Positions 10,475 through 30,219 of a DNA stretch of 64,000 bases are shown here, piece by piece. Both the position numbers and the translations under genes were made by a program. The notes beneath the pieces were generated by a model. It worked only from the letters and a program-made list of their open reading frames with translations, made no database searches and was not told the DNA's origin. How positions within the stretch are numbered: position 1 is the stretch's first letter; every line of letters begins with the position of its first letter. Origin of the DNA: a virus (lineage: Duplodnaviria > Caudoviricetes); the IMG/VR virus record IMGVR_UViG_3300014205_000205, positions 20,135 to 84,134 of that record. One strand, given 5' to 3'.

Positions 10475-10720
10475 TCACGATCTGCGAGGCTTTCCTCTAG
10501 GCTTGGGCGCACCGAGGGCAGTCTCTTTCGGTTCTGCCAGGCCGGTCTTAGGTGGAGGCGTGTCTACCGCTTCGCCGTCAACGATTTCCGCAATCCAATT
10601 CAGTCGGCGCATGGAGGCCTCGGTGCGATCTGAACCGATGTCTTCTGAGGTGATCTTGTCGCCCCATTTGTAGTCGCCGCCCTGCAGTTTGATCGGAGTA
10701 TGACGGACGGTGTAAATCAT
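10475..10720 (-). CDS. Small hypothetical protein of head-neck region
   Basis: ATG overlaps upstream stop (ATGA). Confidence 0.55.
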   Translation of the reverse strand: MIYTVRHTPIKLQGGDYKWGDKITSEDIGSDRTEASMRRLNWIAEIVDGEAVDTPPPKTGLAEPKETALGAPKPRGKPRRS

Positions 10721-11685
10721 AACGCTACCCATGCCTCCTGCATGTACTGCTGGTTCTCCAGGGCGCCCAAGAGCTGCTGCTGCATATTGTTCAGCCGGGT
10801 CATCTCGGCCTGGACTTGGCCAAGGCGGGTCTGCAGCTCACCCTTGCGCGAGTTCAGCTTGACCATCATGGCGTGGGCCTTTGGCTGCTCCCAGCCATAG
10901 AGGTGCGAGGTCTTCAGCAAATCGCTTTCCTGCGGCATGTAAACCCGCACGCCGGCCTGTTTGGCAATGCCGAGGAAGTACTCGCACGACGGCCTTTGGG
11001 CGGCATACTCGCTGCCCTGGGCCATATCGACACCGTAGATGTGGATCTCTTGGAAGCCTTCGGATAGGGCCAGGGCCATCATGTAGCTGATCGAATTGGT
11101 GTAGTAGCCGCCGTACTTGGCGATCATCACCTGCAGCGGGTACTCAACGCTGTTTGGGATGTCGTCCCAGTGCCGCTGCATGTACACAAGGCACCCCAGA
11201 GCCGCCATCTTGGCAGCGTGTTCATTGGAAGCGTTGCGACTGTGGAAGAAGGGGTTGCCCGCGTACTCCGTCTCGCGGCCGTGGATCTCAAACCAGCGCA
11301 GGCGGGCCTCTACTTTCGGCTTCGCCCACGGGTCCGAGCCATCTGCCATCCGCATGTCGTAGGCTTCGTTGAGGGACCAGAGCTCGAAGTCTGGGTCATC
11401 GAACGGCGCTTGGTTCCAGTGGCTGGCGAACCCGACGATGGCCACTTTCTTGATCTTGACGGGCGATGCCGTCTTCGCCAGTTCCGCGGGCTCCTCTTCT
11501 ACGACCGGAGCCTCGTTAGGCCGCTCTGGTTCAACGGGCATCGGGACAACCGGCTGCGCTTCGGGAGCAGGGGCGGGAACACTAGTCTTTTTCTTTTTGG
11601 AAACGTTCGGCTGGTGCACTCTCGTCCTCGACCTCGTAGCGCTCGGTGCAAGGTCCACGGAGTTCTCGGTACTCAAATGATTCAT
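10717..11685 (-). CDS. Putative sialyltransferase/Maf-like (GT29/DUF115-like) nonulosonate transferase
   Basis: KVAIVG...WSLNE...NSISYMMALAL..GFQEIHIYGVDM pattern; low-complexity N-terminal linker, C-terminal coiled coil; coupled to pseB and methyltransferase. Confidence 0.5.
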   Translation of the reverse strand: MNHLSTENSVDLAPSATRSRTRVHQPNVSKKKKTSVPAPAPEAQPVVPMPVEPERPNEAPVVEEEPAELAKTASPVKIKKVAIVGFASHWNQAPFDDPDFELWSLNEAYDMRMADGSDPWAKPKVEARLRWFEIHGRETEYAGNPFFHSRNASNEHAAKMAALGCLVYMQRHWDDIPNSVEYPLQVMIAKYGGYYTNSISYMMALALSEGFQEIHIYGVDMAQGSEYAAQRPSCEYFLGIAKQAGVRVYMPQESDLLKTSHLYGWEQPKAHAMMVKLNSRKGELQTRLGQVQAEMTRLNNMQQQLLGALENQQYMQEAWVAL

Positions 11686-12365
11686 GCCCCCTCGATGTTT
11701 TTCACTACCTGGTCGCCCCCGGCTAGGTAGTGGTCATTCAACTGCTTCCTGAGAAGCCATAGGCCGTAACGCTCTTGCTCTGGCGCATAGGGATCCGGCC
11801 GATTCACACCATGGACCCCGGTAAGCGCCCCCACGACGTGATACAAGCCCGACGCCAGGAATATCGCCTGGTAATCCTGCTTGTAGGTGTACATCGCCGG
11901 GTGGTGCCGATAGGGATTCGCAACCTTGTTGTCAGGCGCGAAGTCCCCGAGCAACAAAAAACCACCGTCTTTCACGGCGGCATCAATCTTTGCGACGGAC
12001 TCCAGCAAACGGGACCGGTCTACCCAGTGCAGTACGTAGTTGACAATGACAAGATCAAACTGCTCACCGATCCGCATGTCGGCGGCCGTGCTCTGGATGT
12101 ACTCGATGCCCTGGTATCTGCTCCGGCCGTCCGCAATCGCCTCCGCAGACGGTTCCACAGCCACCAGACGCAGGGTGTTCGCCGTCTTGATCAGGTGCAG
12201 ACGGTACCCGGTGGAGGCCCCGACTTCCAGGATGGTAGGCGGATCAAGGTGGTAGTCGCGAAGTAGCCGAATGGGCAGATCGTCGTGCAGTTTCGACATC
12301 GCTACGGCATTACGGCGGTAGTAGGCATCTGACTCGGTGCTGCTGAACACGTGGTCCTGCGTCAT
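11682..12365 (-). CDS. Class I SAM-dependent methyltransferase (nonulosonate-locus type)
   Basis: ILEVGASTG motif I, VEPS, FDLVIVNYVLHW, DGGFLLLGDF; ATGA overlap with pseB. Confidence 0.85.
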   Translation of the reverse strand: MTQDHVFSSTESDAYYRRNAVAMSKLHDDLPIRLLRDYHLDPPTILEVGASTGYRLHLIKTANTLRLVAVEPSAEAIADGRSRYQGIEYIQSTAADMRIGEQFDLVIVNYVLHWVDRSRLLESVAKIDAAVKDGGFLLLGDFAPDNKVANPYRHHPAMYTYKQDYQAIFLASGLYHVVGALTGVHGVNRPDPYAPEQERYGLWLLRKQLNDHYLAGGDQVVKNIEGA

Positions 12366-13342
12366 GAGGGCACCGCCTCGCACAGCGCTTCCAGGTCCTG
12401 CACCGACAGCCACCGGTCATTTACGTCTGAGGAGTACCGGAAGCCGGCCGGCAGCGGATCGCCTTGGGCCTGTTCTGCCGTCCACCAGGGGTGTTGGGGT
12501 TGTACGACATACACCGGCCCGGCGTCAATTGTGTGGGCGGTCTCCTCATCAGAGAGCAACGCCTCGCCGAGCTTTTCGCCCGGTCTGATGCCGGTAACCA
12601 TGATGGGCACGCCTGGGGCAATCGCTTGCGCCAGATCTGTAACCTTCATGCTGGGCAGTTTGGGAATGAAGATCTCGCCGCCCTGCATGTGCGTCAGGGA
12701 GTACTTCACTAGGTCTGCGGCTTGAGGTAGAGACAGCCAGAACCGGGTCATGCGGGGGTCCGTGATGGTGATGCGCCCGGTCTGGGCCAGCTGGCGGAAC
12801 AGCGGCACCACGGAGCCCCGAGAGCCTACGACGTTTCCGTATCGACAGGCGCTAAACGAAGTCCGTCCGGGGCTGTAGGCATTCCCTTGAATGAACAGAT
12901 CCTCCGCCACCGCCTTGGTCTTGCCGTAGAGGTTGCTCGGTGAGCAGGCTTTGTCGCTGGAAACCAGCAGGACCTTCTTGACCCAACCATCAATTGCGGC
13001 GTCGATGACGTTCTGACTGCCTTGGATGTTGGTTTTGACGGCCTCGGCCGGGTTGTATTGGCAAGCCGGAACCTGTTTGAGCGCCGCTGCGTGAATCACT
13101 ATGTCGACCCCGGCGAAAGCCCGTTCCAGCCGGTCCTTGTCTCGCACGTCGCCAATGAAATACCGGACGACACTCCCTGTGTCATCTGGCCACCGCGCGC
13201 GCATCTCGTGCTGCTTGAGCTCATCACGACTAAATACAATCAACCGTTTAGGATTCTGCGGCAGTATTTTTTGAATTAATTGGTGTCCCAGTGATCCGGT
13301 TCCACCGGTGATCAGGATCGTCTTGCCTGTAAAGAGCCCCAC
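12362..13342 (-). CDS. pseB: UDP-N-acetylglucosamine 4,6-dehydratase (inverting)
   Basis: TGGTGSLG, SRDELKQ, GDVRD, HAAALKQVP, SSDKA..P.NLYGKTK, RYGNVVGSRGSVVPLF, TDPRMTRFW, GIRPGEKL; probable GTG start 13342. Confidence 0.92.
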   Translation of the reverse strand: MGLFTGKTILITGGTGSLGHQLIQKILPQNPKRLIVFSRDELKQHEMRARWPDDTGSVVRYFIGDVRDKDRLERAFAGVDIVIHAAALKQVPACQYNPAEAVKTNIQGSQNVIDAAIDGWVKKVLLVSSDKACSPSNLYGKTKAVAEDLFIQGNAYSPGRTSFSACRYGNVVGSRGSVVPLFRQLAQTGRITITDPRMTRFWLSLPQAADLVKYSLTHMQGGEIFIPKLPSMKVTDLAQAIAPGVPIMVTGIRPGEKLGEALLSDEETAHTIDAGPVYVVQPQHPWWTAEQAQGDPLPAGFRYSSDVNDRWLSVQDLEALCEAVPS

Positions 13343-13367
13343 TAATAATCGCCCCAATCTATAAAGT

Positions 13368-13393
13368 AAGGAGGAGGCGCCTGCCCCCTCCTT
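13368..13393 (-). terminator. Hairpin / probable attenuating terminator upstream of pseB
   Basis: AAGGAGGGGGC-AGGC-GCCTCCTCCTT (11 bp, one G-U) then ACTTTAT. Confidence 0.55.
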
Positions 13394-13405
13394 CAAAACT
13401 CGAGC

Positions 13406-14107
13406 CTACGAAATCCCCGAATGATTCCCGCTTGACGACACGACCAACCAACGCGTGGATGAGGCCCCGACCAAACGAACAAACTGGTCAAGAGCATCGA
13501 ACGTCAGGATGGTGCCCGTCGAATCGAATGTTTGGACCGTTGAGGCCGTTGTGACCGTGTGCGCCTTCGTAGTGTTGGCGATGTTGTAGATGACCTTTTG
13601 GACACCGGCCACGGGAGCACTGATGGTCACGGCCATCTGCGACGTGTTGCTCAGAACGCTGATGCCGTATGCAGTTAGCACACCACTTGTGGTCGCCACC
13701 GTCTGCAGGGCCTGAAACAATCCACCGGAGAGGGTGGCAGTACCGGTAACTGCCAAATTGCTAGAGCCGGTAAGCGTTCCGCCCACTCCAAAGGTGCCAG
13801 CGATGGTGCCGTTGCTGGAACCGGTGATGGTCTTGGAAACCGTGAGTCCGCCGCTCACCAGGGCGCTACTCGATGCCGTAAGCGTGCCGCCAATCGTAGC
13901 GGCACTCGACCCGGTGATGGTTTTGCTGACAGTCAGCCCGCCCGAGACCAACGCACTGGAAGAGGCGGTGAGCGTCCCACCGACGGTTGCCGCTCCTGAA
14001 CTGACAACAGCTCCCGAGACATTCAATCCGGATGACAGCGTCACCGCTCGCTCGAACGTCGCCGGAGACTCAAAATACTCTGTTTGCCGCCGATTGATAC
14101 CCGCCAT
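13406..14107 (-). CDS. Ser/Thr-rich head fibre / decoration protein with tandem 30-aa repeat
   Basis: Directly after major capsid gene; about 33% Ser+Thr by manual count; beta-fibre-like GGTLT repeats. Confidence 0.6.
   Translation of the reverse strand: MAGINRRQTEYFESPATFERAVTLSSGLNVSGAVVSSGAATVGGTLTASSSALVSGGLTVSKTITGSSAATIGGTLTASSSALVSGGLTVSKTITGSSNGTIAGTFGVGGTLTGSSNLAVTGTATLSGGLFQALQTVATTSGVLTAYGISVLSNTSQMAVTISAPVAGVQKVIYNIANTTKAHTVTTASTVQTFDSTGTILTFDALDQFVRLVGASSTRWLVVSSSGNHSGIS
13814..13993 (-). repeat. Two tandem 90-nt units encoding AAT[VI]GGTLTASSSALVSGGLTVSKTITGSS
   Basis: 29/30 amino acids identical but only 5/30 codons identical. Confidence 0.9.
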
Positions 14108-14165
14108 TGCACTTCACTCCTTTCTATGCCGGGGCCCGCCACATGACAGGCCCCGCATGACTCAA

Positions 14166-15128
14166 TCAGGCGACGCACGCATTGAAGAACGCAGCGCAGT
14201 CCGCGGCGACGACCTTCTGGGCGTAGGCCATTTCGCCTTCAATCCGATCCGAACGCTTCAGGTCGATCCGGAAACGGCTGATGACGGAGCCGGACTGATT
14301 GGCGCCCAGATACCCGGTCCAGTCGAATGTGTAGCCGGCAGACGGCATCAGAAGGCCCGGAGACGGAGCCGAGTAGCAGAGCAGGGCATGCTTGCCGTAG
14401 AGGAATGACATGGAGGCGTTTGCCCCCTCAACAGCGGAGTTCTGCACGGCATAGGGCACCAATACCCGGTCGACGTCAAACAGGGCCGGAAGCAGATCCA
14501 GAGTGACAACACCGCGCTGGACGTGCTTGATCCGGTCGATGATGTCCGGGTGATGGCGCAAGGCGTCAAAGACCTGCGGGCCGATCACCAGGGTGTTGGG
14601 TTTGTAGCCGGTGTTCTGCGAAACAGCGATGGACTGGGCGGTGACGTCCTCGATTGGCGTGCTGGAGTTCGTGCCCCACTGGGTGCCGACGGTGATGTCG
14701 GTACCGGTGGTGGAGCCTGTCCAGATGCCGGTCGTGAAGAAGTTCGTCACCCAATCAGCTTCACGCTTGATCAAAAGCTGATGCGTCACCCACTCGGTAG
14801 CATCCCGGTCCATGTCGAGCGGCGCATCGGCATTGGCCCGGGTCTGATCGTCGATATCCTTGTGGACGGCAACCACGTTAGCCGAATACACGTCTGTGCT
14901 GTTGGAATAGCCGCTGCCAGCCGACTCGGTAGCCGGGGCCCGGACCTTGGCCTCAGACCGATGCCAGTATTCCTTGGGGTACGTAAAGAACTTGTCGGAT
15001 TGCTTGCTGACAGGGACGCGCGGGAAGGCTGTCCCGGCGATAAAATTGGTAGCCCTCTGGAGGTATGCCACGCTGATGTTAGTCAGCGGCCGGTTTACAT
15101 GTACTTGGTTAATGGACGGATCAGGCAT
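14166..15128 (-). CDS. Major capsid protein (HK97 fold, gpE-like family)
   Basis: 320 aa, RPLTNISVAY...FIA...FPRVPV, LRHHPDIIDRIK; follows scaffold and cement genes. Confidence 0.88.
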   Translation of the reverse strand: MPDPSINQVHVNRPLTNISVAYLQRATNFIAGTAFPRVPVSKQSDKFFTYPKEYWHRSEAKVRAPATESAGSGYSNSTDVYSANVVAVHKDIDDQTRANADAPLDMDRDATEWVTHQLLIKREADWVTNFFTTGIWTGSTTGTDITVGTQWGTNSSTPIEDVTAQSIAVSQNTGYKPNTLVIGPQVFDALRHHPDIIDRIKHVQRGVVTLDLLPALFDVDRVLVPYAVQNSAVEGANASMSFLYGKHALLCYSAPSPGLLMPSAGYTFDWTGYLGANQSGSVISRFRIDLKRSDRIEGEMAYAQKVVAADCAAFFNACVA

Positions 15129-15151
15129 ATTTGTTCATCCCATCCTGTGCT

Positions 15152-15258
15152 CGCCAGCCCCTGGCGGCGCGACACATGCCCCACGAAAACTAATCGTCGG
15201 GCTCTGGCCGTGGGGCGCGACCATACGGGCGGAATAGCGAGTTCCGCCTGAGCCCGAC
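15152..15258 (-). ncRNA. Candidate structured cis-regulatory RNA in capsid-gene leader
   Basis: 9-bp, 7-bp and 6-bp stems forming a junction, an 8-nt loop-tail complement, and a terminal hairpin. Confidence 0.45.
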
Positions 15259-15292
15259 AAAGTTAATTTAGATCAGGTTGATTTAGATCGAA

Positions 15293-15670
15293 TCAGCTCG
15301 ACTGAAGCATGTGCAGAATTTCCAGCGACACGATGTTGCCAGAGACCAGCGAGGTCGTGCCGGATACCAGCATGCCGAGAATGTAATCACGGACGCCGGT
15401 GGATGAACCAGCCCGGCCCAGGGTGGTAGCGCCAACCAAGTCGGTGACCGCAAAGTTGCCATCGGTCATGACCTTGGTTTGACCGCCGATGGCGACCTCA
15501 GCGAACCCGCTGGAGGTGCCGGATTGAATCACACCAATGACTTTGGCGCCGGCGCTGGTCGGAAATACCAACAAGCTCTGCGTGGTCAGGCCGACGATCG
15601 CATACTGGGACGTGGAGAAGTCTGCGCCTACCTCGTAGGTGCGAGTGATAAGCCCTTGCGAAACAGCCAT
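15293..15670 (-). CDS. Capsid cement/decoration protein (DUF2190-like)
   Basis: 125 aa between scaffold and capsid; VIGVIQ...G..AEVAIGGQTKV pattern; about 25% Ser+Thr. Confidence 0.7.
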   Translation of the reverse strand: MAVSQGLITRTYEVGADFSTSQYAIVGLTTQSLLVFPTSAGAKVIGVIQSGTSSGFAEVAIGGQTKVMTDGNFAVTDLVGATTLGRAGSSTGVRDYILGMLVSGTTSLVSGNIVSLEILHMLQSS

Positions 15671-15671
15671 G

Positions 15672-18562: not shown

Positions 18563-19453
18563 TTATTTCGGGATTTCAGTGACCAGCGCGACGGCACACC
18601 GGCAACTCGGGTGGAGTGTCGGTCCTGATATCAGTCCGGCGTCCGATTGAAATGGTTCGCCAATCGGCACCTTTTGACCATCCATCGCCAAGCATCTAGG
18701 GCACGTTCGCGGACTGTCTACCGCTGCGATCCATTCCTGCATGGACATACTCAGAAGCAAGCCCTCTGCCCTGGCCTCTTCCCAAGCATACTGGGAACCT
18801 CTAGAGGCTGCGTTTATAGTCTCGGTGCGAGCGATGTTCTCGGCTCGTCGGCGCAAGAGCTTCTTTTCGTAGGTCTCAGCCATCTTGTTCGCTGCCGAAA
18901 CCGACCTGGTGCCATCCATTGCGACCGTCTTCCAGTACTTCAGAGCAGTGTTTGCATCCCGCTCTGTCAGCCCAACCATCTCTTTGATGGCTTTCGCTGA
19001 TTGGTACGGGTGCACACCAGTCTCAAATGCGTTTCGGATCACGCTTTTGATGGCCTTGCGGGTCTCATCACCAATCTGCACCACGAGTTCGGCCGTGTGT
19101 GTGTCGATCCACTGGTAGACGTATGGGTTTTGCAGGTCGAATTTCATCGTCAGCCGCATGTGCTCCAGTTCGAGCTTCCCGGCCCTTTCCAGGGCTTGCG
19201 CCATCAAGGAAGCGCTCTCGACCACGAATAGGTTCGAGGCGGCTGTCCAGTCCATGCGGTCCAATATGCCAGCAGGGTCGCCGGATTCAACTGCCCGAAT
19301 GACGTCTTCAACGGTCACATCGCGTTTGAGTGTCTGCGAGTAGCCTGCAATTGTCTTGTCCCAGCCTGTGGTCAATTCGGTGGATAAGGTCTGTGATTGC
19401 CGTAGATGGCGGTCTAACTCGGGGTCTAGCTTGCGTACCCACTGCCAGGTCAT
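18563..19453 (-). CDS. Head morphogenesis protein (SPP1 gp7 / Mu gpF family)
   Basis: RAENIARTE, CPRC...GQKV, PTLHPSCRC. Confidence 0.9.
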   Translation of the reverse strand: MTWQWVRKLDPELDRHLRQSQTLSTELTTGWDKTIAGYSQTLKRDVTVEDVIRAVESGDPAGILDRMDWTAASNLFVVESASLMAQALERAGKLELEHMRLTMKFDLQNPYVYQWIDTHTAELVVQIGDETRKAIKSVIRNAFETGVHPYQSAKAIKEMVGLTERDANTALKYWKTVAMDGTRSVSAANKMAETYEKKLLRRRAENIARTETINAASRGSQYAWEEARAEGLLLSMSMQEWIAAVDSPRTCPRCLAMDGQKVPIGEPFQSDAGLISGPTLHPSCRCAVALVTEIPK

Positions 19454-20757: not shown

Positions 20758-21417
20758 TCACCTCCCCAGTAGCTCCCGGTAATCGGTGTGTCCGGGTTGA
20801 ACACTCTGGTGCAGGGCCCGGATTAGGTCGAGGTCGGCAGGCGTGTCCAACGTCCACCGCAGCGACGATGTGTCACCGGTGGAGGACACGTTGACGGCCC
20901 CGAAGCGCCCGGGGGCGTGCCATAGATACGGTGTAACGTGCTCTCGGTCAAACTTGCTGCCTGCTTCGTCCCAGGCTGTTTGCAGAGCAGCGATGCTCAT
21001 GACTTCGCAATCCAAGCCGTCCGGGTAACTCGGCGGGTGCACGTTGCTGGCATACTCACAACCGGCCGCCTGGAACTCCTGGATGACCCGAGACACCACG
21101 GTGGGATCGAGCAGCGGGCAATCGGCAGTAATGCGCACCACAACGGTGAGGAGGTGCAGGGCTGCCGCCTTGAAGTAGCGGTCCAATACATCCGTCTCGT
21201 CACCGCGGTAGACCCTGACACCCCACTCCCGGCACTTGGCCGCGATCGCATCGTCCTTCTGTTCCCGGCTGGTGGCCACGACAATGCGCTCAATCTCGGG
21301 AACGAGCTTCACCCGATCAATGACGTGACGGAGAACCGGCTTCCCGCCAAGATCCATGAGGACCTTACCAGGAAGCCGGGTGCTGCCCATGCGGGCCTGT
21401 ATAATCGCGCCGATCAT
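20758..21417 (-). CDS. spsF: SpsF/NeuA-family cytidylyltransferase (CMP-nonulosonate synthetase)
   Basis: IIQARMGSTRLPGKVL, GDETDVLDRY, RITADCPLLDP, REHVTPY, RWTLDT..D. Confidence 0.88.
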   Translation of the reverse strand: MIGAIIQARMGSTRLPGKVLMDLGGKPVLRHVIDRVKLVPEIERIVVATSREQKDDAIAAKCREWGVRVYRGDETDVLDRYFKAAALHLLTVVVRITADCPLLDPTVVSRVIQEFQAAGCEYASNVHPPSYPDGLDCEVMSIAALQTAWDEAGSKFDREHVTPYLWHAPGRFGAVNVSSTGDTSSLRWTLDTPADLDLIRALHQSVQPGHTDYRELLGR

Positions 21418-21485
21418 ACCCAAATAAAGCGCCCCTCTACGAAAAAGCGGCCCCGCACCCGTGGGCACAAGACCTCATCATGGAA

Positions 21486-21522: not shown

Positions 21523-21987
21523 TCACGTTCCAGAACGAGAGAAGATAATCCCCTCGTCCCAGTACGCCAAGGCCAGAGCCAGCAATCCCTTATTGGCGAG
21601 GTAGTACACGTTCCGCTCGCTCATATGCAGCTCAAAGGCCACGCCGGTCGCCGTGTATCTGCCGTCCACCAGGAGCATCTGCAAGACCTGTCGGGTCTCA
21701 CTTTCGAGGCTGGGCAGAGTGTCATCAATCCAGCGGACGCGTTCTCGTTTTTGCGCAACAGTCTTGTTTTGGGCCAGGGCAGACGCTCGACTTCCTACCG
21801 GGTCACCCGGGCCCCCGTTTTGTATTCCTGGTGTCTCGTTCACCGGCGAGGCGAGAATGACGTCCATCTCGGAAACCGCCGCCTGCTTTTTGTGCCTCTG
21901 GTAGTGGCGCAGTTCCTCGCGCACGAACCAAAGGTAGTGCGCTTCTATGACACAGCCATCGATGTGGAATAGGCCAGAACGCCGCAA
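21523..21987 (-). CDS. ArpU/RinA-like late transcriptional regulator
   Basis: WIDDTLPSL...RQVLQM...TGVAFELHMSERNVYY region-4-like HTH. Confidence 0.7.
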   Translation of the reverse strand: MRRSGLFHIDGCVIEAHYLWFVREELRHYQRHKKQAAVSEMDVILASPVNETPGIQNGGPGDPVGSRASALAQNKTVAQKRERVRWIDDTLPSLESETRQVLQMLLVDGRYTATGVAFELHMSERNVYYLANKGLLALALAYWDEGIIFSRSGT

Positions 21988-21999: not shown

Positions 22000-23049
22000 T
22001 CAGATATTCACCACGCGCCCGGTGTCCGATGCCTTGCGAGCGGCCTCCACGATCTGAACGGCTCTTAACCCGTCCTCGCCCGTCACCAAGGGCTTTTCCT
22101 CACCGCGGATGCAGGCCAGGAAGTGCCGTAGTTCGGCCCGGTACATGTCGTCGGGATGGAACGGTTGGGCTTGCCCTTGGTGCTCGTAGGTGTGCTTCCC
22201 GGCTTTTTTGGACACCTTGACTACCCACGCGTTGAAGTTCCAGTCAATACTCCCGGTATCTCCGACAATCCGGCATCCTCGCTGTGCTTCTTGGTCCAAG
22301 TAGTCCAAGTGGATGCTGGCCTGGACTCCACTCTCAAACCGCACTACCAGGTCGGCGATATCCTCCGTCTCGATCTGCAGAGCGCCCGAGTTCTGCATCG
22401 TGCAGGATACGCTCACAGGCTGCCCGAACAGCCAGCAGGCGTAGTCCAGTTCATGGCTGGCATCCATGAGAATGCCGCCCCCGGTTTTCCGTGAGGCGGC
22501 ATAGTTGGTACGGTAGTCGATCCCTGGGCGCCAGTCTGGCAGATAGGATCCGAAGTGGATGGAGGCGTGGCGGACCGTGCCAATGGCACCGGAGTCGATG
22601 ATCCCCTTCGTTCGGCGTAGGCCGGGATGGAAACGCAAACAGTATCCGACGAGAAGGGGCACCTCTTCCGTGTCAGCATGGAGGAGGATATGTTCGGCAT
22701 CGTTCAGATCGTGGGCCAATGGTTTCTCGATCATCACCGCCGACATTCTGCCGTCCACGATGGCTTCCCGTGCGGCATCATAATGCAGATGGTTCGGTGT
22801 GGCGATGATAGCGCCATCGTATTGTTCGCAAATGCCGCGGTAGGTGCCCCAAACCTTGAATGGCCACTTGCACCCTTGTTTTTCCGAGATTGTCGGCGAC
22901 CCGTATTCCCTGTATAGCGCCAATCCCGCCCGCGGATCCGTATCGCAAGCGTCGACTTCCACCCCCATCTCTTTGAGCAGTCGAATGTGCCGGCGTCCGA
23001 TGGAGCCGCAACCCACGACCAAGATCTTCAGGGGCTTATCATTTGGCAA
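22000..23049 (-). CDS. Gfo/Idh/MocA family oxidoreductase
   Basis: VVGCGSIGRRH, IATPNHLH, MIEKP, VGYCLRF, GGGILMDASHELD; TTG start 23049 with GGAGGT RBS. Confidence 0.9.
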   Translation of the reverse strand: MPNDKPLKILVVGCGSIGRRHIRLLKEMGVEVDACDTDPRAGLALYREYGSPTISEKQGCKWPFKVWGTYRGICEQYDGAIIATPNHLHYDAAREAIVDGRMSAVMIEKPLAHDLNDAEHILLHADTEEVPLLVGYCLRFHPGLRRTKGIIDSGAIGTVRHASIHFGSYLPDWRPGIDYRTNYAASRKTGGGILMDASHELDYACWLFGQPVSVSCTMQNSGALQIETEDIADLVVRFESGVQASIHLDYLDQEAQRGCRIVGDTGSIDWNFNAWVVKVSKKAGKHTYEHQGQAQPFHPDDMYRAELRHFLACIRGEEKPLVTGEDGLRAVQIVEAARKASDTGRVVNI

Positions 23050-23480
23050 GTCATTGTTACCTCCGTCTCTGTTCGCCTGGTCTCCGCGTACCCAGCCTGG
23101 GCGAAGGCCTTTTGGGATGCTGTGTTCTCCGTCTTGATCACAGCCTTGATGGTCTTGACCCCAACCTTCTGCATCTCGGCGTTTCCCAGCCGCAGTATTT
23201 CTGCCCCCACTCCGCAGCCACGATGGCCCGGCGCCACCGTCACACTGACGAATGCCTCGCCACCCTCGACGTCGTAGCGGACGGTACCCAGCGAAAGACC
23301 GGCCCGCCGAGCGATGAACAGGCGCCGGCTCGAATCCTCCATAACATTTCGTAGCCACTGGAGGTGCTCTTTCCACGAGACGGGCTTCGAGTCGAACATC
23401 ATCGCCCTAGTGGTCGGATGATTGCGCCAGACGTACAGCAGCGATGCGTCCTCCATAATAGCTCGTCGCAGAGCGGTCAT
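23028..23480 (-). CDS. PseH-like GNAT N-acetyltransferase
   Basis: LRRA..EDA.LL..WRN...R.M, EHLQW, HRGCGVG, N.AS...F...GY. Confidence 0.8.
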   Translation of the reverse strand: MTALRRAIMEDASLLYVWRNHPTTRAMMFDSKPVSWKEHLQWLRNVMEDSSRRLFIARRAGLSLGTVRYDVEGGEAFVSVTVAPGHRGCGVGAEILRLGNAEMQKVGVKTIKAVIKTENTASQKAFAQAGYAETRRTETEVTMTCQMISP

Positions 23481-24301
23481 CGGATCTCCCTCACAAGCTG
23501 GAAGGCTTCGGCGGCCATCAGGCCGGACTGGGCGCCCCGGAGCATGGCCTGCGCCCGCAGGGCCTCTGGCGATCGCGGGTGCGGAAACGGCCGCCGCTCA
23601 GTCTCATACATCTCCATGGCTTGAATCTTCTTCTCCAGGTAGTCACCCGAGATGTCCACGAAGGTGGTAGGCCGGAATGCCGGTTCCGTGCTGAAAGCCC
23701 ATTCGGTCGAGCTGGCCACCTCGTAGGCATAGACACTCTTTACGGAGCAGCCCGGAACCGGCCGCGTTGCGATCAGAGTAGCATGCGCCATTGCCCGGTG
23801 ATCCTGATTCAGGTCCCCAATGTGATGGGTATACACCACTTCTGGCTGGTATAAGTCGAGCAGGTGCTTGATAACTTCAGAGATGTCCAAGCCGCCGATT
23901 GTGTCCAGACGTTGGTCTGGCAAGTTTCCGAAGCTAACGATGGAAGCTCCTAGAAACTTGGAGGCGTTATCAGCTTGACTCATCAACGTCTCTAGTTCTG
24001 CCGTTGTCGTCGTGCCTCGTGATGTTAGGCCGGTTGCCAGTATGCCGATGCTTACCTCGTGGCCCTCGGCCGCCAGGCGGGCAATGGTACCGCCGCATCC
24101 AAGGCACTCATCGTCTGGATGTGCGGCCAAGACGAGAATCCGCTTGCTTTTGGCGCTCGGCTGACGCGGCGCTACCATGGCTTGGTCGGCCTTACACACA
24201 TGGCAGAAATTCGGACCACCGCACCGCATCTGTTTCCCGTCGGGACGGGGGAACACCCGCCCGTGTCCGCTATTTGGATTAGCTGGATTGTAACGTTCCA
24301 A
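23477..24301 (-). CDS. PIG-L/LmbE family N-acyl-sugar deacetylase with N-terminal Cys-rich extension
   Basis: LVLAAHPDDECLGCGG, HHIGDLNQDH, KIQAMEMYETE.R..PHPRS. Confidence 0.9.
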   Translation of the reverse strand: MERYNPANPNSGHGRVFPRPDGKQMRCGGPNFCHVCKADQAMVAPRQPSAKSKRILVLAAHPDDECLGCGGTIARLAAEGHEVSIGILATGLTSRGTTTTAELETLMSQADNASKFLGASIVSFGNLPDQRLDTIGGLDISEVIKHLLDLYQPEVVYTHHIGDLNQDHRAMAHATLIATRPVPGCSVKSVYAYEVASSTEWAFSTEPAFRPTTFVDISGDYLEKKIQAMEMYETERRPFPHPRSPEALRAQAMLRGAQSGLMAAEAFQLVREIR

Positions 24302-24317: not shown

Positions 24318-24965
24318 CTAAGCCCACCAAGTCTGATGGGTGTCCAAGTCCAATAGAGAAAGGCGCCCTCCCCAGACGGCGCCCGTGTCGATGCCTATTT
24401 TGTCGGGTCCGCGCCACACCTCGTAGCTGCCGTGCAGCAGATGCGTCGGTGTGTGGCCGAAGACCACTCGTTTACCGCGGTAACCCTCGTGGAACTCCCC
24501 GCGGATCCAAAGGAGGTCATCTGGTGTCTGTTCGCTCAACGGAACTCCCGGCCGCAGGCCCGCATGGACGAGGATGCAGTCAGGCTCCTCGTGGTAGAGT
24601 GGCAAGCCGGCGAGGAAGTTGACCACGTGGTCCGGGATAGCACCGCCGAAGTCTGCCATAGTTTTGTCTCCGCCTTGTTGCATCCACACTTGGCGGTCCC
24701 ACTCGCGCATCCAGGCATGGCGACTTGCATCTCCTTGCAGGTAGGCCAGCATTACAGCGTCGTGGTTGCCAAGGACGGCCTTCGCCCCTCGGTCTACCAG
24801 GTCCATCACAAGGTGAATGGTTGAGGCCGCGTCCGCCCCTCGGTCCATGTAATCGCCCAACAAAAAAAGCCGGTCGCTCTCCGGCTTGTAGTGGGCCATA
24901 TCCAGGATTTGCAGCAGTCGATGTCCTTCGCTGTGGATGTCTGCCACGGCCAGCCTACGACCCAC
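24318..24965 (-). CDS. Calcineurin-like metallophosphoesterase
   Basis: DIH, GDYMDRG, GNHD, VHAG, FGHTP, IDTG motifs. Confidence 0.9.
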   Translation of the reverse strand: MGRRLAVADIHSEGHRLLQILDMAHYKPESDRLFLLGDYMDRGADAASTIHLVMDLVDRGAKAVLGNHDAVMLAYLQGDASRHAWMREWDRQVWMQQGGDKTMADFGGAIPDHVVNFLAGLPLYHEEPDCILVHAGLRPGVPLSEQTPDDLLWIRGEFHEGYRGKRVVFGHTPTHLLHGSYEVWRGPDKIGIDTGAVWGGRLSLLDLDTHQTWWA

Positions 24966-25899
24966 GGCGAATCTCCTCCAACACTTGGGCCAGGCGTTCC
25001 TTGCGGGATTTGGGGTGCCAGTCTAAATGTGGTGAAGGATATAGATTCATCGTCGGTTGCTTCACGGCGCCACAGACGACCGAGGTTCCCGGCACTAAGC
25101 CGGTGATTTCATGGGCAAGTACGGCCAGGCTGCATGTTTCCGACCCGGTGACATCGGTGGTAAGGCCCTCCGCCCAGTTGGCATTGAAGGGCGTCCATTT
25201 GACGGCGGCCAAGAAAGCGCCAGCAACATCCTCGATGTGCATGACGTTGAGCGGCAATGGGTAGGGCGCGGTCACCCGCACTTCGCTTTTGGCCAAGGCG
25301 TCCCGGCATATTTGGTAGACAACGCCTTCTCTGCGATCTCCGCCAAACACTCCGGGCAGTCGCAGAATCGAGACGGTCAAGCCCTGTTTCCTACCCATTT
25401 GAAGAACCTGTTCCGCAGCCAACTTACTGGCCGCGTAGTGATCCAAAGGATCAGCGAGGAGTTCATCATCGCACGTACCGCCATAAGCCAGAACGCCGTA
25501 TACCGCCTGCGTGCTGGCAAAGATCAGGTGCTTTACCCCAGCCTTAAGGCAGTAGTCCAAGACGTTGGCCGTTGCTACTACGTTGTCACGGTACAGCCGG
25601 GCGATGTCGCAAGGCCCGGGTACGGGCGGCAAATCGGCCCCTTCGGGATTTGGCAGAAGGCTGATGTCTACCCGCCCCGCCAGGTGGATGACGACGTCGG
25701 GCGGCCGCTCCTCGATCAGTTTGCCAAAGCCCTTGGACAAGTCGCAGAACCATCGCCTCTCCGGCCCTCCCGCATACCGCCGCACATGTGGCTCGTTCGG
25801 CCAGTTGCACAGCGGTATGGCGTAGTGACCAGCCTTCTGCAACTTCGGCACCAGATGCCTGCCAATATAGCCTTCCGCCCCGGTGACTAGGATTCTCAC
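24955..25899 (-). CDS. NAD-dependent epimerase/dehydratase (extended SDR)
   Basis: TGAEGYIG, VVIHLAG, FASTQAVYG, YAASK, LRLPGVFG. Confidence 0.9.
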   Translation of the reverse strand: MRILVTGAEGYIGRHLVPKLQKAGHYAIPLCNWPNEPHVRRYAGGPERRWFCDLSKGFGKLIEERPPDVVIHLAGRVDISLLPNPEGADLPPVPGPCDIARLYRDNVVATANVLDYCLKAGVKHLIFASTQAVYGVLAYGGTCDDELLADPLDHYAASKLAAEQVLQMGRKQGLTVSILRLPGVFGGDRREGVVYQICRDALAKSEVRVTAPYPLPLNVMHIEDVAGAFLAAVKWTPFNANWAEGLTTDVTGSETCSLAVLAHEITGLVPGTSVVCGAVKQPTMNLYPSPHLDWHPKSRKERLAQVLEEIRRGS

Positions 25900-25928
25900 G
25901 CGTTACACTCCTTTTACAGGCGGACGTC

Positions 25929-26165
25929 TCAGCCGCGCAAGATCTTATCGACGGTCGTATACGTTTCAAGCACTTCCCGCCAATCGTCGCCATAGCGTCC
26001 AAGAAGCGCCGTGGCTTTACGCAACCAATCACCGTGAGCATATCTTTTCCAGTCAGGGTGGTTTCCGATGTGCTCATAGCCCCATGAGCACTGGTCAATG
26101 TGACTGAGCTTACAGAAACGCTCATGCAATTCGATCGCAACCGATTGCTCAGCAGTCAAGCTCAT
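25929..26165 (-). CDS. Hypothetical protein
   Basis: ATGA-coupled to ATP-grasp gene. Confidence 0.55.
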   Translation of the reverse strand: MSLTAEQSVAIELHERFCKLSHIDQCSWGYEHIGNHPDWKRYAHGDWLRKATALLGRYGDDWREVLETYTTVDKILRG

Positions 26166-27139
26166 GCGTTCCACCCCTTCGGCGCCCGCTCTTTGAAGTC
26201 CGCCTCACTCATGATCCCGTCATGCGTCTGCCTGACCAGGACCACACCCTCCCGCCACTCGCCAAAGGTGTACGGCCGCCCCAGGGCCAATTCGATCAGC
26301 CCGCCAACCTCATCACAGCCGGCCGCGATCGTCAGGTTGACCGTGCCGCTGAACCTCGGATTGATCTCGAACACATAGGGTACGCCATCCCGCATCCGAA
26401 GTTGCACGTTGAAGGGGCCGCACGGGTTCAGCTTCTCGGCGATGTCGCGGCACACCTGGTCAATGGCTTTGTTGCGCCGGGTGACGGCCAGCCGCGTAGA
26501 GCCTCTCTTGTCGATGATCTCCTTTGGCACCACGGCGTGAACAGTGTTGCGCTGGTCGCAGACGACGGAGACGGTGTACTCCGGGCCGTCGATGTACTCC
26601 TGGATAATGAGCGCATCAAGGTAGCCCGCGGTTTCGGCGTGAGCCAATCCCTCTTGGCGGGACCGGATAATCGCTACTCCGCGACTGCCTCGCCCTGTAC
26701 GCGGCTTAATTACCCATGGATATAGCAAATCAAATGGGGCTGTATCGTCGATGGTTTTCGTTCTGTTATACGTGCGAGGGACCGTGACGCCGATGCCGCC
26801 CAGGACGCGCATTAGTTCTCGCTTGTCTAGGCAGGCGCGGATAAAGGTCTCCGTTGGAGTAAGCACTTTGGACGGATTAGCGGCTTTGAACAACGCCGAC
26901 TCTTCGTCCACCAGCGGAATGGCTATATCAACTGACTGGCGAATGCAGAGGTCCATCATAGCAAGCATGTAGCCATTGTCCGTCGCTTTTGGCACAACAA
27001 AACCCCCATCGCCCAGGTATAGCCCAGGTGCATGGGGGTCCGTGTCGCAAGTTAGTACTCGATGGCCTCGGGACTGCAAATGGCGGATCAGATCAGGTAT
27101 GGCGGCGCCGCCCGCACCTGTAAGTAATATGGTTGCCGT
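26162..27139 (-). CDS. ATP-grasp domain protein (amide-ligase type), apparent ACG start
   Basis: IKPRTGRGSRG, QEYIDGPEYTV, FNVQL, FEINPRFSG; conserved TILLTGAGG N-terminus reached only from ACG at 27139. Confidence 0.85.
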   Translation of the reverse strand, partial: TATILLTGAGGAAIPDLIRHLQSRGHRVLTCDTDPHAPGLYLGDGGFVVPKATDNGYMLAMMDLCIRQSVDIAIPLVDEESALFKAANPSKVLTPTETFIRACLDKRELMRVLGGIGVTVPRTYNRTKTIDDTAPFDLLYPWVIKPRTGRGSRGVAIIRSRQEGLAHAETAGYLDALIIQEYIDGPEYTVSVVCDQRNTVHAVVPKEIIDKRGSTRLAVTRRNKAIDQVCRDIAEKLNPCGPFNVQLRMRDGVPYVFEINPRFSGTVNLTIAAGCDEVGGLIELALGRPYTFGEWREGVVLVRQTHDGIMSEADFKERAPKGWNA

Positions 27140-27144
27140 TTAGA

Positions 27145-27363
27145 TTACCTCCACATTCTTGTCTGCGCATCATTCAATTTGCGCAACGTATCTTGAATGC
27201 TCTGCCACTCCTTTGAAAGGTGGCGAAGCCGGTCTGTTTCTGCCACAACCTCAGCCGTCCTCCGCTTCTGGTCTTTATCCATCCTGTGAATCAAATACAA
27301 ACTCAACGGTAGGGATAAAGCCATCGATACCAAAGCGACAAGAGGAACCACCCACCAATTCAT
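27145..27363 (-). CDS. Small membrane protein
   Basis: N-terminal hydrophobic helix then coiled coil; ATGA-coupled to neuB. Confidence 0.55.
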   Translation of the reverse strand: MNWWVVPLVALVSMALSLPLSLYLIHRMDKDQKRRTAEVVAETDRLRHLSKEWQSIQDTLRKLNDAQTRMWR

Positions 27364-28403
27364 CGCAGCACCCTCCATTCCACAACCTCATCCTCTGGAA
27401 TGTCCGCCTTGGCCACTCGCCCAACCACCAAAGTGATGTCCTTCGCCGGTATCCCATGTCCCGGTCGCTTGCTTGTCAACATCTCCGCTGTGATCACAGT
27501 CCCGGAAGGGATATAGCAGGCGGACACCACCGAACGCCGCGCCTTGAGGTACATATCTTGCTCCTCAGGTGCCGGGCCGGTCTTATCTCCGTCACCCATG
27601 GCGGCCTCTACGTCTCGGATCTGGCTTACCATGGCTTTGAGTTCGCCGGGCTCCAAGGCGAAAGCGTGGTCTGGGCCCGGCGATGTGCGGTCAAGCGTGA
27701 AGTGCTTCTCGATGATGCAGGCACCCATAGCAACGGCTGCGAGGGGGATGTGCCAGCCTAGTGTGTGGTCGGAGTAGCCAAGCAGGCCGTCGTAAGTGCA
27801 TGACCATTCGGGGATGAATCTCAGGTTGGCGATATGGCAAGGCGCCGGATAGAGCGACGCGCACTGAAGAAAGGCCACTGCGTCGTTGTCCATGTCCCAA
27901 CAAGCGCCATATACATCCCCGATTTCTCGCGCGGTACACATCCCGGTAGAGATGATCATCGGCCTGCCCTTGCTGGCCACGTACCGCACAAACGGCAGGT
28001 CTACGGCCTCATAGGAGCTGATCTTGAATGCCGGCACCCCAATGGCGTCAAGCTCGTCCACCCCGGCCCGATCGGTCGGCGTGCTCAGCCAGTGGATGCC
28101 TTTGGCTGTGGCGTAATCGAACAAGGGCTTCTGCCATTCCCTCGGCAATTCGGCTTTGCGGATAATGTCCCAGGTGTCTTCGTCACGACCCGCCAGGTAA
28201 GTAAAGCGCGGCGTACGCTTGGAATAGAGAGTATCGGCACTGTAGGTTTGGAACTTTACCGCATCGCAGCCGGCTTCGACAGCGGCATCAATCAAGCGCT
28301 TAGCCGTCTCGAAGTCGCGGTTGTGGTTGCTTCCGGCCTCGGCTATTACGTAACAAGGATGGCCCGGGCCCACGGTTCGGTGGCCGATTTGGATGGTACT
28401 CAT
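27360..28403 (-). CDS. neuB: N-acetylneuraminate synthase family (PseI/SpsE/NeuB) nonulosonate synthase
   Basis: IAEAGSNHN, DAVKFQ, FKISS, IISTGM, GYSDHT, IIEKHFTLDR, GPDH, C-terminal SAF domain KRPGHGI. Confidence 0.95.
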   Translation of the reverse strand: MSTIQIGHRTVGPGHPCYVIAEAGSNHNRDFETAKRLIDAAVEAGCDAVKFQTYSADTLYSKRTPRFTYLAGRDEDTWDIIRKAELPREWQKPLFDYATAKGIHWLSTPTDRAGVDELDAIGVPAFKISSYEAVDLPFVRYVASKGRPMIISTGMCTAREIGDVYGACWDMDNDAVAFLQCASLYPAPCHIANLRFIPEWSCTYDGLLGYSDHTLGWHIPLAAVAMGACIIEKHFTLDRTSPGPDHAFALEPGELKAMVSQIRDVEAAMGDGDKTGPAPEEQDMYLKARRSVVSACYIPSGTVITAEMLTSKRPGHGIPAKDITLVVGRVAKADIPEDEVVEWRVLR

Positions 28404-28404
28404 C

Positions 28405-28644
28405 TCAGACTCTCCTCCCATCCATCCTACGCACACCCGGGAACTGACGAGATATTGCCTCCCAAAATGACCGGGCGGCCTCATCTGGTACGTACCCAGG
28501 ACCGAATGCTACCTGCCCGGTTCCCAAGTGGATCTTGACCATACCATTTCCGATGTTGATGTGGCCATACAGAGCAGGAGCCGCCGTTATACCCATGCCT
28601 CCCAAGGCGGAAAGCGGCATTATGACTTCGCGGTCGTCGCCCAT
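28405..28644 (-). CDS. Hypothetical protein
   Basis: ORF packed between neighbours. Confidence 0.5.
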   Translation of the reverse strand: MGDDREVIMPLSALGGMGITAAPALYGHINIGNGMVKIHLGTGQVAFGPGYVPDEAARSFWEAISRQFPGVRRMDGRRV

Positions 28645-28961
28645 ATGGCTCTCGCCTCTTTCTTAATCTCAACGTTGCCGTGAAGCACTTCTTCGCAAGC
28701 TCCTTCTTCACAGGAACACCGATGGACCGATGTTGCCCGGTCATCCTCGGCGCAGAAGTGGACCACAAATCCATTCGGACCGGCCAGCGCCTCCGTCGTC
28801 AGCAGAACCTTGTTGCCATTGAGGAATACCTCTACCGTGGTTGTCTCCGCTTCCTTGCGATCGGTCTTAAAACGCAGGGCTGTGTGATCCGGCCCTTGCC
28901 GCGGGCCACTCGGAAACGGCTCGGGATGACAGCGCCGGCACCGACATACATGCTCGGCCAT
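28620..28961 (-). CDS. Hypothetical Cys-containing protein
   Basis: ORF packed after aminotransferase with RBS. Confidence 0.5.
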   Translation of the reverse strand: MAEHVCRCRRCHPEPFPSGPRQGPDHTALRFKTDRKEAETTTVEVFLNGNKVLLTTEALAGPNGFVVHFCAEDDRATSVHRCSCEEGACEEVLHGNVEIKKEARAIWATTAKS

Positions 28962-28965
28962 GGTT

Positions 28966-30219
28966 CTACCGCGCCCCTTCCCTTGGCTCCTCCAACCACT
29001 TCTCCAGCACCTCGGCTACCTCGTAGTACACCTGCGCCGTGCGCCGAATGTCTTCGTCACTGTGGCTGTAGCCAACGTAGGTGATCAAGCCTGGCAGCAC
29101 GCCGCGGGCCGCACATTCGGCCATGAAACGCATCTTCAGCTCCTGCGCTCGGGGTCCGGTGAATGTCTGGCGCCAGCAAACCGGGATGCCCTCGGCGTAA
29201 GCAGGCACGTCGTGGCGGTTCATCGCGCCCTCGAAGCCAGCCATGAGCGTTGATCCCGCCCGGTAGATGTGGTCTGCGACCGGCTCCGAACGGAGGATGT
29301 TTAGCGTAGCCTTAGCCGCAGCCAGGCCGATCAGCTCGCCGTTGTAGGTCCCTGAAATGAAACACTTTTCAAAGGCGTCCATAACATCCCGGCGGCCAGC
29401 TACAGCCCCGGTCGCATAGCCATTGCCCATCGCTTTCCCCAAGCAAATCAAGTCGGGCGTAACACCGCACCACGCGGAATACGTGAGCCCGTTGAAGCGG
29501 CCGAAGGTCACGACCTCATCCGCCACATACAACGCACCGTACCGGACACACAGTTTTTTGACCTTACGCAGAAACTCGAAGGAAGCCATGAACGTCCGGG
29601 CTGGCTCAATGAGTACCGCAGCGACTTGGGTCCCTCGTTCGGCATGCCATTCCAGACGCTCCTGAAGCGAGATGGCATCGCCGTAAGTGAATTGGTCGAT
29701 GTTGTCTGCCAGGTTCTTCGGCACACCGTACTCGCCCCGGCCTAACTGAGTCACCTGGAAGTAGTCATCCTGCCCGTGATACGAGTTGCTGGCTACCAAG
29801 ACAACATCGCGCCCGGTATATGTCCGGGCCGCCCTGACCGCTGCCGACGTCGCCGCCGATCCGGTCTTGACGAAACGAACTGCATCCGCTCCGGGCAGGA
29901 TCTCGGTCAGCATCTCAGCCACCTCGACGACCAAGGGGTGCTCTAAAGAAAAAAGCACGCCCTTGCGTGCCTGCTCGACCACCGCTTCGGTAACTGCCGG
30001 GTAGTTGTACCCCAGGACGATTGGCCCGAGGGCCGCCATGTAGTCGATGTACTCGTGACCGTCAACGTCCCAGACGTGTGAGCCTTGCCCTCGCTCGATG
30101 AACGACGGGTAATCGATCGGGTTTCTCGCCGTGGCCTTGCTGAGTGTCTGGGCCCCTTGGCAGGGCATCACTTTCTCTGCCCTCGCTAGCCATTCTCGCG
30201 ACTTGTCATACTGCCCCAC
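28966..30219 (-). CDS. Class III PLP aminotransferase (GSA-aminomutase-like, sugar-locus type)
   Basis: GQGSHVWDVDGHEYIDY, FVKTGS, DEVVTFGR, GKAMGNG (PLP Lys), SGTYNG. Confidence 0.9.
   Translation of the reverse strand: MGQYDKSREWLARAEKVMPCQGAQTLSKATARNPIDYPSFIERGQGSHVWDVDGHEYIDYMAALGPIVLGYNYPAVTEAVVEQARKGVLFSLEHPLVVEVAEMLTEILPGADAVRFVKTGSAATSAAVRAARTYTGRDVVLVASNSYHGQDDYFQVTQLGRGEYGVPKNLADNIDQFTYGDAISLQERLEWHAERGTQVAAVLIEPARTFMASFEFLRKVKKLCVRYGALYVADEVVTFGRFNGLTYSAWCGVTPDLICLGKAMGNGYATGAVAGRRDVMDAFEKCFISGTYNGELIGLAAAKATLNILRSEPVADHIYRAGSTLMAGFEGAMNRHDVPAYAEGIPVCWRQTFTGPRAQELKMRFMAECAARGVLPGLITYVGYSHSDEDIRRTAQVYYEVAEVLEKWLEEPREGAR

Follow-up and report, generated by a model that had tools for sequence, protein, structure and literature searches.

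We examined a 64,000-nucleotide window (bases 20135-84134) of the linear 84,134-bp IMG/VR viral contig IMGVR_UViG_3300014205_000205, whose completeness is estimated at about 74%, and propose that the tailed phage it represents glycosylates its own particles. Specifically, we suggest, with a probability of about 0.6, that a head-fibre-like protein is self-glycosylated with a tailored nonulosonic acid by late-expressed, phage-encoded enzymes. Nonulosonic acids are found on the coats of animal cells and on bacterial flagella, capsules and spores. The sugar genes lie in two blocks on the minus (late) strand, one between the genes for the large terminase subunit (TerL) and the portal protein (20758-30219) and the other between the capsid and neck genes (10717-14107). 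Gene content, a sialyltransferase fold, synteny with the capsid gene and co-occurrence with a nonulosonate synthase point to a nucleotide-activated nonulosonate as the likely donor, to O-linkage to protein, and to an acceptor that would be carried on the virion. A previous sequence-only reading of this DNA had listed a series of sugar-pathway enzymes within the virion operon, and every one of them is indeed present on the late strand inside the head-gene order.

A phage-restricted family with a predicted sialyltransferase fold

The enzyme that would attach the sugar is a 322-residue protein (10717..11685) lacking a Pfam or PHROG match, whose gene overlaps the stop of the preceding methyltransferase gene at its start and the next head gene at its end. 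The AlphaFold2 (AF2) model has a mean predicted local distance difference test (pLDDT) score of 82 (mid-90s through most of the core) and comprises a disordered N-terminal stretch of 75 residues, a catalytic core spanning residues 76-258 and a 57-residue C-terminal helix. When a profile of 41 homologues was compared with the PDB, six of the seven best matches were sialyltransferases of glycosyltransferase family 42 (GT42), including CstII at an E-value of 0.06, and the alignment extended from the N-terminal nucleotide-binding strand through a conserved "YGVD" strand. The ten best Foldseek matches are likewise all GT42 chains, each with a probability of 1.0, and VIA-align superimposes CstII with a Z-score of 10.8 and a root-mean-square deviation of 3.3 Å over 154 residues. 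An MptE-like HPPK (8sd5) follows just under GT42 at Z 9.6, human GT29 enzymes reach Z 6.4-6.7, and no Maf structure is among the VIA-align matches listed. Five residues, H135, D220, E226, R231 and E235, are invariant in the family. Going by the model, the protein has a GT-A-variant sialyltransferase fold, yet it lies outside both GT42 and Maf by sequence. It is the protein that the earlier reading had described as "Maf/GT29-like".

The closest structural counterparts are Campylobacter jejuni Cst-II and Cst-I of CAZy family GT42 (Z 10.4-10.8 over about 155 residues). In the profile alignment, the phage protein matches them along the N-terminal nucleotide-binding strand as well as in a conserved stretch ahead of the "G-x-D" strand. 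It differs from Cst-II in that sequence identity is just 13-22% in the Foldseek and VIA-align alignments, and in that no lid or membrane-association region is evident, their place being taken by the disordered N-terminus and the long C-terminal helix. The acceptor of Cst-II is a lipooligosaccharide galactose, whereas that proposed for the phage enzyme is a protein. The contig yielded no match to GT2 (PF00535, E<=1) or to Maf; hence, the transfer of a single sugar directly onto protein fits its gene content.

A different interpretation of this protein would make it a head-assembly factor or a nucleotide-binding, MptE/pyrophosphokinase-type enzyme, with the sugar genes representing unrelated auxiliary metabolic genes. 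Its long C-terminal helix and disordered N-terminus could indeed serve assembly, no hidden Markov model of GT42 or Maf matches it, and the MptE-like HPPK and thiamin pyrophosphokinases superimpose with Z-scores of 8-9.6. We nevertheless consider this improbable, as the best profile and structure matches are consistently sialyltransferases, the co-occurrence of the family with the nonulosonate synthase NeuB is very strong (see below), and no other transferase for a CMP-sugar was found on the contig.

Synteny with the capsid gene and a candidate acceptor

The genomic context of the family argues for a role in the virion. Across 73 non-redundant loci, the open reading frame (ORF) immediately upstream of the transferase gene is rich in Ser+Thr (median 24%; background ORFs, 13.4%), and 79% of these upstream ORFs reach a content of at least 20%, compared with 23% of the background (Mann-Whitney p ~1e-18). 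Among ORFs situated second or third before the transferase, all ten that were sampled code for major capsid proteins, and these belong to four PHROG families. In the lineage studied here, as in its relatives L031, L033 and L034, the Ser/Thr-rich gene is separated from that of the transferase by an insertion of the genes for PseB and a methyltransferase.

The Ser/Thr-rich gene of the window (13406..14107) directly follows that of the major capsid protein (14166..15128; phrog_1005 at 5.2e-87; PF03864) and encodes a 233-residue Ser/Thr/Gly-rich repeat protein, a candidate head fibre or decoration protein with 33% Ser+Thr, whereas the enzymes have 7-13%. It is built of repeats of about 20 residues, the number of which differs among orthologues (227-332 residues). 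Ten such proteins compared with PHROG gave no match, while the Atlas neighbors of the protein are 95-100% viral save in one row (69%) and include fibre-like families. Short, regularly spaced strands in its model, which has a pLDDT of 51, suggest a β-solenoid. Other Ser/Thr-rich proteins are encoded in the structural module at 10085-10447 (32%), 6637-7278 (27%), 9443-10051 (24%) and 15293-15670 (25%); possibly they are further acceptors, or else they display the usual composition of β-rich virion proteins.

The close relatives L031, L033, L034 and L037 retain the blocks in place, and L037 repeats the TerL-side block gene for gene from the aminotransferase to the Gfo/Idh/MocA oxidoreductase. In contrast, PseB and the transferase are absent from six of six distinct relatives identified through the capsid protein, and the Ser/Thr-rich protein from five of the six. 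In these five, the gene after that of the capsid encodes either a small, ordinary protein or already a head-tail adaptor-like one. NeuB was absent in both of the two capsid relatives whose records were searched. The acceptor candidate, the transferase and the donor genes, being jointly absent in these relatives, behave as one accessory module. More distant relatives identified through the portal protein (26 IMG/VR loci, 34-56% identity) show none of the sugar genes, which marks the module as accessory rather than core. The sequence-only reading had named related phages lacking the synteny as something that would refute its proposal, and here the outcome is mixed: the close relatives keep the gene order, whereas the more distant portal relatives do not have the module. 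GC content is even across the window (0.56-0.60), and a recent acquisition of the sugar genes is therefore unlikely.

Phyletic distribution and the link to NeuB

Metagenome proteins include more than 1000 homologues of the transferase, and the family is present in 482 IMG/VR contigs. Among 185,579 species genomes of GTDB, it matches just 22 contigs of metagenome-assembled genomes (MAGs), none of them longer than 36 kb, and the scattered taxon labels of these probably reflect the binning of viral contigs. Of 50,697 GenBank phage records, a single one carries a homologue, Microcystis phage Mvi-Yong1342-1 (PP496355.1, 8908-9711; L060), where a protein of 30% identity is annotated as a "type 11 methyltransferase"; a "sugar O-methyltransferase" is encoded elsewhere in the same genome.

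The family also travels with the nonulosonate synthase. Among 41 IMG/VR records of 12 kb or more that carry the transferase, 21 have a NeuB match above the Pfam cut-off, and the fraction rises with completeness to 14 of 16 for records at least 50% complete and to five of five for those at least 90% complete. Conversely, none of five portal relatives has NeuB, and three of these five lack a transferase after the capsid gene. The particular NeuB of this phage is matched in only three GenBank phage records, and a NeuB-based scan of IMG/VR returned one distant locus.

Probable enzymes for synthesis and tailoring of the donor sugar

The minus strand carries every gene between positions 32742 and 1; spacing is mostly tight, and several stops and starts overlap, but there are also five gaps of 160-280 nucleotides. 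In transcription order, a gene for a 205-residue protein of unknown function is followed by TerL (30471..32123; PF05876, PF20454), the upstream border of the first block, and then by a class-III aminotransferase, small ORFs, a NeuB-family synthase, a 77-residue ORF and an ATP-grasp ligase. Next come a short-chain dehydrogenase/reductase (SDR), a metallophosphoesterase, a PIG-L deacetylase, a GNAT acetyltransferase, a Gfo/Idh/MocA oxidoreductase, a regulator-like gene and a cytidylyltransferase, up to the portal gene (19450..20754; PF06074 at 1.4e-30) that forms the downstream border. Beyond the portal lie MuF (18563-19453), a virion protein, an XkdF protease, scaffold-like proteins, the major capsid protein and the Ser/Thr/Gly repeat protein, and then PseB, an S-adenosylmethionine (SAM)-dependent methyltransferase, the 322-residue transferase, and the neck, tail terminator, tube and tape measure genes. 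The metallophosphoesterase and the regulator-like gene were not on the earlier list.

The second block contains the enzyme that would open the pathway, an inverting UDP-GlcNAc 4,6-dehydratase of the PseB type (12362..13396; PF02719 at 4.8e-95), which passes its equivalog cut-off (TIGR03589, 418.6 bits against 407.75). It is followed by the class-I SAM methyltransferase, which is NodS-like (11682..12413; PF13649, PF08241, PF08242). In the first block, the synthase, which also has a SAF domain (27360..28484; PF03102, 275 bits, 8.7e-82), probably starts at 28403, with a ribosome-binding site ahead. It remains below both the NeuB and the PseI equivalog cut-offs (340 bits for TIGR03569, cut-off 400; 297 for TIGR03586, cut-off 340), and its solved relatives are, in order, Bacillus subtilis SpsE (227 bits), PseI and NeuB. 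The GNAT N-acetyltransferase (23028..23480; PF13302) is PseH-like, scoring 57.5 bits against the PseH model TIGR03585, which is below the cut-off of 93.1. Activation of the sugar with CMP would fall to the SpsF/KdsB-type cytidylyltransferase (20758..21468; CTP_transf_3, PF02348 at 6.3e-35, 121 bits), the gene for which ends three nucleotides ahead of the portal gene. Its best PDB relative is the cytidylyltransferase 6oew, and it reaches only 22 bits against the PseF model TIGR03584 (cut-off 205.7).

The remaining enzymes are best understood as a tailoring set. The first gene after TerL encodes the class-III, glutamate-1-semialdehyde-aminomutase-like, pyridoxal-phosphate-dependent aminotransferase (28966..30219; PF00202 at 1.1e-52), whose PDB relatives include an aminoglycoside C-6' aminotransferase. 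The gap between the NeuB and ATP-grasp genes is filled by the 77-residue ORF (27145..27378), which overlaps the end of the NeuB gene and codes for one hydrophobic helix. The ATP-grasp ligase (26162..27136; PF02655, PF15632, PF21360) has a PylC-like N-terminal domain with a conserved Gly-rich motif that lies upstream of the first ATG/GTG/TTG codon (27079), in a frame that is open from 27136. The orthologue in L037 aligns from its residue 2, reaching 27136 in the open frame, and this arrangement suggests either a non-canonical start or re-initiation after the 77-residue ORF. The SDR epimerase/reductase-type enzyme (24955..25899; PF01370 at 5.2e-28), which is below every equivalog cut-off, has its stop overlapped by 11 nucleotides by the gene for the calcineurin-like metallophosphoesterase (24318..24965; PF00149 at 4.8e-12), a pairing also kept in L037. 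Further downstream are the PIG-L/LmbE-type de-N-acetylase (23477..24301; PF02585 at 2.1e-24) and the Gfo/Idh/MocA oxidoreductase (22000..23049; PF01408, PF22725, PF02894), the start of which we refine to a TTG at 23049 with a GGAGG site. The slot after the latter is variable: here it holds the regulator-like gene (21523..21987; phrog_36, phrog_248), in L037 a T5orf172/MUG113 gene, and in L031 nothing was called before the cytidylyltransferase. A terminator-like hairpin with an 11-bp stem (21449-21474) lies between the regulator-like gene and the start of the cytidylyltransferase gene; scans for promoter-like and terminator-like sites across the window were at or below chance, with no enrichment.

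An acidic sugar activated in this manner could in principle be destined for the bases of the phage DNA. There is a precedent in phage DNA glycosyltransferases that can place CMP-activated keto-deoxyoctulosonate (Kdo) on cytosine (bioRxiv 10.1101/2023.12.21.572611), 5-hydroxymethylcytosine being the base that receives Kdo and other sugars in other phages, and the contig does encode DNA methylases, a PAPS-reductase-like protein and an SNF2 helicase. Nonetheless, such hypermodification appears very improbable: the contig lacks the families that would generate 5-hydroxymethylcytosine, namely Tet/JBP dioxygenases (PF12851), thymidylate-synthase-like hydroxymethylases (PF00303) and C5 methylases (PF00145); the transferase has the GT42 fold as opposed to the GT-B fold of DNA glycosyltransferases like T4 β-GT (bioRxiv 10.1101/2023.12.21.572611); and its gene resides in the head module beside that of the Ser/Thr-rich protein, away from the replication genes.

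Relationship to bacterial nonulosonate islands

Taken together, the gene set is that predicted for a pathway of the pseudaminic (Pse)- or legionaminic (Leg)-type 5,7-diamino nonulosonates, in which two canonical steps have no assigned enzyme and tailoring enzymes are numerous. The combination of the latter is not random, because bacterial nonulosonate islands carry largely the same families. One such island combines PseB, a DegT aminotransferase, Gfo/Idh/MocA, GNAT, an aminotransferase-cytidylyltransferase fusion, NeuB, ATP-grasp, a methyltransferase and PIG-L. In a second, PseB, DegT, Gfo/Idh/MocA and the same kind of fusion occur with NeuB and a PseG-GNAT fusion; its last gene is that of a Maf flagellin glycosyltransferase, which provides a protein-O-glycosylation precedent for the chemistry. 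To these flagellin O-glycosylation islands the phage proteins show identities of 57% for PseB, 48-52% for the cytidylyltransferase, 43-44% for the aminotransferase, 51% for PIG-L (island L035) and 37-40% for NeuB. The logic proposed here is also the same as in those islands: in the cytoplasm, a nonulosonate is transferred from CMP to Ser/Thr of a surface-exposed filament protein, prior to export or assembly. The phage version differs in being embedded in a head operon, in being without DegT/PseC and PseG, in having a transferase that is not Maf but closer to GT42, and in its proposed acceptor, a capsid-linked repeat protein. Comparable parallels extend to the B. subtilis sps genes for the legionaminic acid of the spore crust: the phage synthase is nearest to SpsE and the cytidylyltransferase is of the SpsF/CTP_transf_3 type, but there is no SpsC-type DegT aminotransferase, and the context is again a head operon.

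The fusion offers a pointer to the role of the only aminotransferase on the contig, which is of class III, with none of the DegT type. In bacteria, relatives with 43-47% identity to it very often form a single chain with an SpsF-type cytidylyltransferase, as in the islands L035 (10001-12055) and L036 (10001-12046), where the source name is "glutamate-1-semialdehyde aminomutase/SpsF"; the phage has the two as separate genes 7.5 kb apart. By analogy with this fusion, the function of which is apparently uncharacterised, the aminotransferase may act at the level of the nonulosonate or the CMP-nonulosonate.

The resemblance to bacterial islands, one of them with Maf, also raises the alternative that the phage remodels the surface of its host, directing a CMP-nonulosonate that it makes or boosts to flagellin, S-layer protein, pilin or polysaccharide during infection or lysogeny, for instance to block superinfection. 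The tyrosine recombinase on the contig and the wall- or S-layer-binding domains borne by relatives of the endolysin are compatible with this, and the missing PseC and PseG might suggest a host that already owns such a pathway. We regard it as rather unlikely, however, because the transferase family hardly occurs outside viral contigs and its gene comes directly after those for the capsid and the Ser/Thr-rich protein, with capsids of four different families, whereas the Ser/Thr-rich protein is mostly absent where the transferase is absent. Furthermore, all the genes are in the late operon, with several overlaps and with promoter- and terminator-like sites not enriched.

Proposed mechanism and its weak points

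In the mechanism that we favor, self-glycosylation of the virion, the PseB-type dehydratase would start from UDP-GlcNAc of the host, and the GNAT enzyme, the NeuB/SpsE-like synthase and the SpsF-type cytidylyltransferase would build and CMP-activate a nonulosonate of the 5,7-diamino type. The PIG-L deacetylase and the ATP-grasp ligase could together swap an N-acyl group; the Gfo/Idh/MocA oxidoreductase and the class-III aminotransferase might carry out an oxidation followed by an amination, probably at the nonulosonate level; and the SDR and the methyltransferase could tailor the nonulosonate further. For the PseC and PseG steps there are three candidate sources: the host, the quarter of the genome that the contig does not cover, and phage enzymes that are non-orthologous to the canonical ones. 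The transferase, predicted to be soluble and to represent a new phage-restricted family with the GT42 sialyltransferase fold, would then, in the infected cell and before assembly, O-link the nonulosonate to Ser/Thr residues of the repeat protein whose gene comes straight after that of the capsid and which is probably a head fibre or decoration protein. Other Ser/Thr-rich virion proteins are perhaps glycosylated as well. Particles formed in this way would be coated with an acidic sugar.

Several points count against this proposal. With regard to the donor, PseC (the DegT model PF01041) and PseG (TIGR03590) had no match at E<=1 on the roughly 74%-complete 84-kb contig, and hence the phage may be unable to produce the sugar by itself. 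For the same reason, the "whole nonulosonate pathway" of the sequence-only reading is too strong a description, and the genes do not make up the complete canonical CMP-pseudaminic acid set of PseB, C, H, G, I and F. As for the transferase, its fold is common to MptE-type enzymes and thiamin pyrophosphokinases (Z 8-9.6), a catalytic base (His) is not mapped, and neither PF01973 (MptE-like/Maf) nor PF06002 (GT42) has a match at E<=10 on the contig, the latter being a weak test since control genomes likewise gave none. The homologue of PP496355.1 is encoded just upstream of terS, away from the capsid gene. On the side of the acceptor, the repeat protein was picked for its position and composition alone, a high Ser/Thr content is in any case common in structural proteins, and its AF2 model is poor. 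Finally, there is no cultured relative, and the integrase-type gene of the tyrosine recombinase family makes a lysogenic conversion of the host surface conceivable. On balance, the earlier proposal that the phage makes a CMP-nonulosonate and puts it on virion proteins gains comparative support from the fold, the restriction to viruses, the presence of NeuB in 14 of 16 of the more complete records, the capsid synteny and the joint absence in capsid relatives. The canonical set is incomplete, as no match to PseC or PseG was found.

Other features of the genome

GenBank phage relatives of the TerL protein are all distant (<27% identity), and the relatives of the endolysin are unnamed metagenome proteins, the best named one coming from an Armatimonadota MAG (44%). 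A Cu_amine_oxidN1 wall-binding domain only hints at a host with a Firmicutes-like envelope. The sole Rfam match in the window at gathering thresholds is a tRNA-Gln (UUG) on the minus strand (43282-43357). The early/replication region contains two TnpB/IS605 OrfB genes on the minus strand (44914-45984 and 62598-63677), both with HTH_OrfB_IS605, OrfB_IS605 and Cas12f1-like TNB domains, and the relative L034 has one such gene among its tail genes.

Outside the window, in bases 1-20000 of the contig (L029), a tyrosine recombinase gene (15344-16276) is situated between the tail-distal and lysis genes, with neighbors that encode a subtilase (13775-14962) and an ALK/LTK glycine-rich domain protein (18163-19341). 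The recombinase could be an integrase or one that switches tail fibres. The same segment has, at 4022-7595 on the plus strand, an SNF2-family helicase gene followed by that of a PAPS-reductase/DUF3440 protein, a pair often associated with DNA modification or anti-defence.

Comparison with other virion glycosylation systems and implications

Glycosylation of mycobacteriophages employs ordinary GT-A or GT-B glycosyltransferases together with host sugar nucleotides. Virion glycosylation in these phages is reportedly the subject of a 2023 study by Freeman et al. in Cell Host Microbe, which PMC12619734 cites (see also PMC11256854); phage-encoded transferases glycosylate the capsid or tail proteins of the mycobacteriophages themselves. 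The system described above departs from those cassettes in having no GT2 match, in a nonulosonate that would be largely phage-made and in its sialyltransferase-fold enzyme. It is more like the autonomous glycosylation of giant viruses (reviewed in PMC9614988) in that the virus encodes both a sugar-nucleotide pathway and transferases for its own particle; however, those are viruses of eukaryotes with fibril glycans of other sugars, whereas this is a tailed phage of at least 84 kb with a single sialyltransferase-fold enzyme. Our literature search recovered work on flagellin and Maf, on mycobacteriophage virions and on giant-virus glycans, and no tailed phage with a nonulosonate coat. What the window contributes is an especially large, 13-gene version of such a system in two head-module blocks, along with a Rosetta-stone connection of the aminotransferase to the cytidylyltransferase, a census that puts numbers on the transferase family and the joint absence of acceptor candidate, transferase and donor genes in relatives.

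The chances seem evenly balanced on a broader generalization: that the phage-restricted family is a new class of protein O-nonulosonyl transferases coating the head-fibre proteins of many uncultured phages, that sialylated particles are common in viromes, and that the present lineage bears an elaborate, possibly new, amino-acylated or extra-aminated nonulosonate. The bacterial SpsF-aminotransferase fusion, for its part, suggests that nonulosonate chemistry includes a late tailoring step yet to be characterised. If our proposal is correct, it would explain why 10-15 kb of sugar genes sit inside phage head operons, and it would establish a new family of protein glycosyltransferases whose compact, soluble scaffold could be useful for glyco-engineering. 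It would also add a layer to the surface chemistry of phages, with consequences for their charge and stability, for how they adhere to mucus or biofilms, and for how they evade recognition and mimic host glycans.

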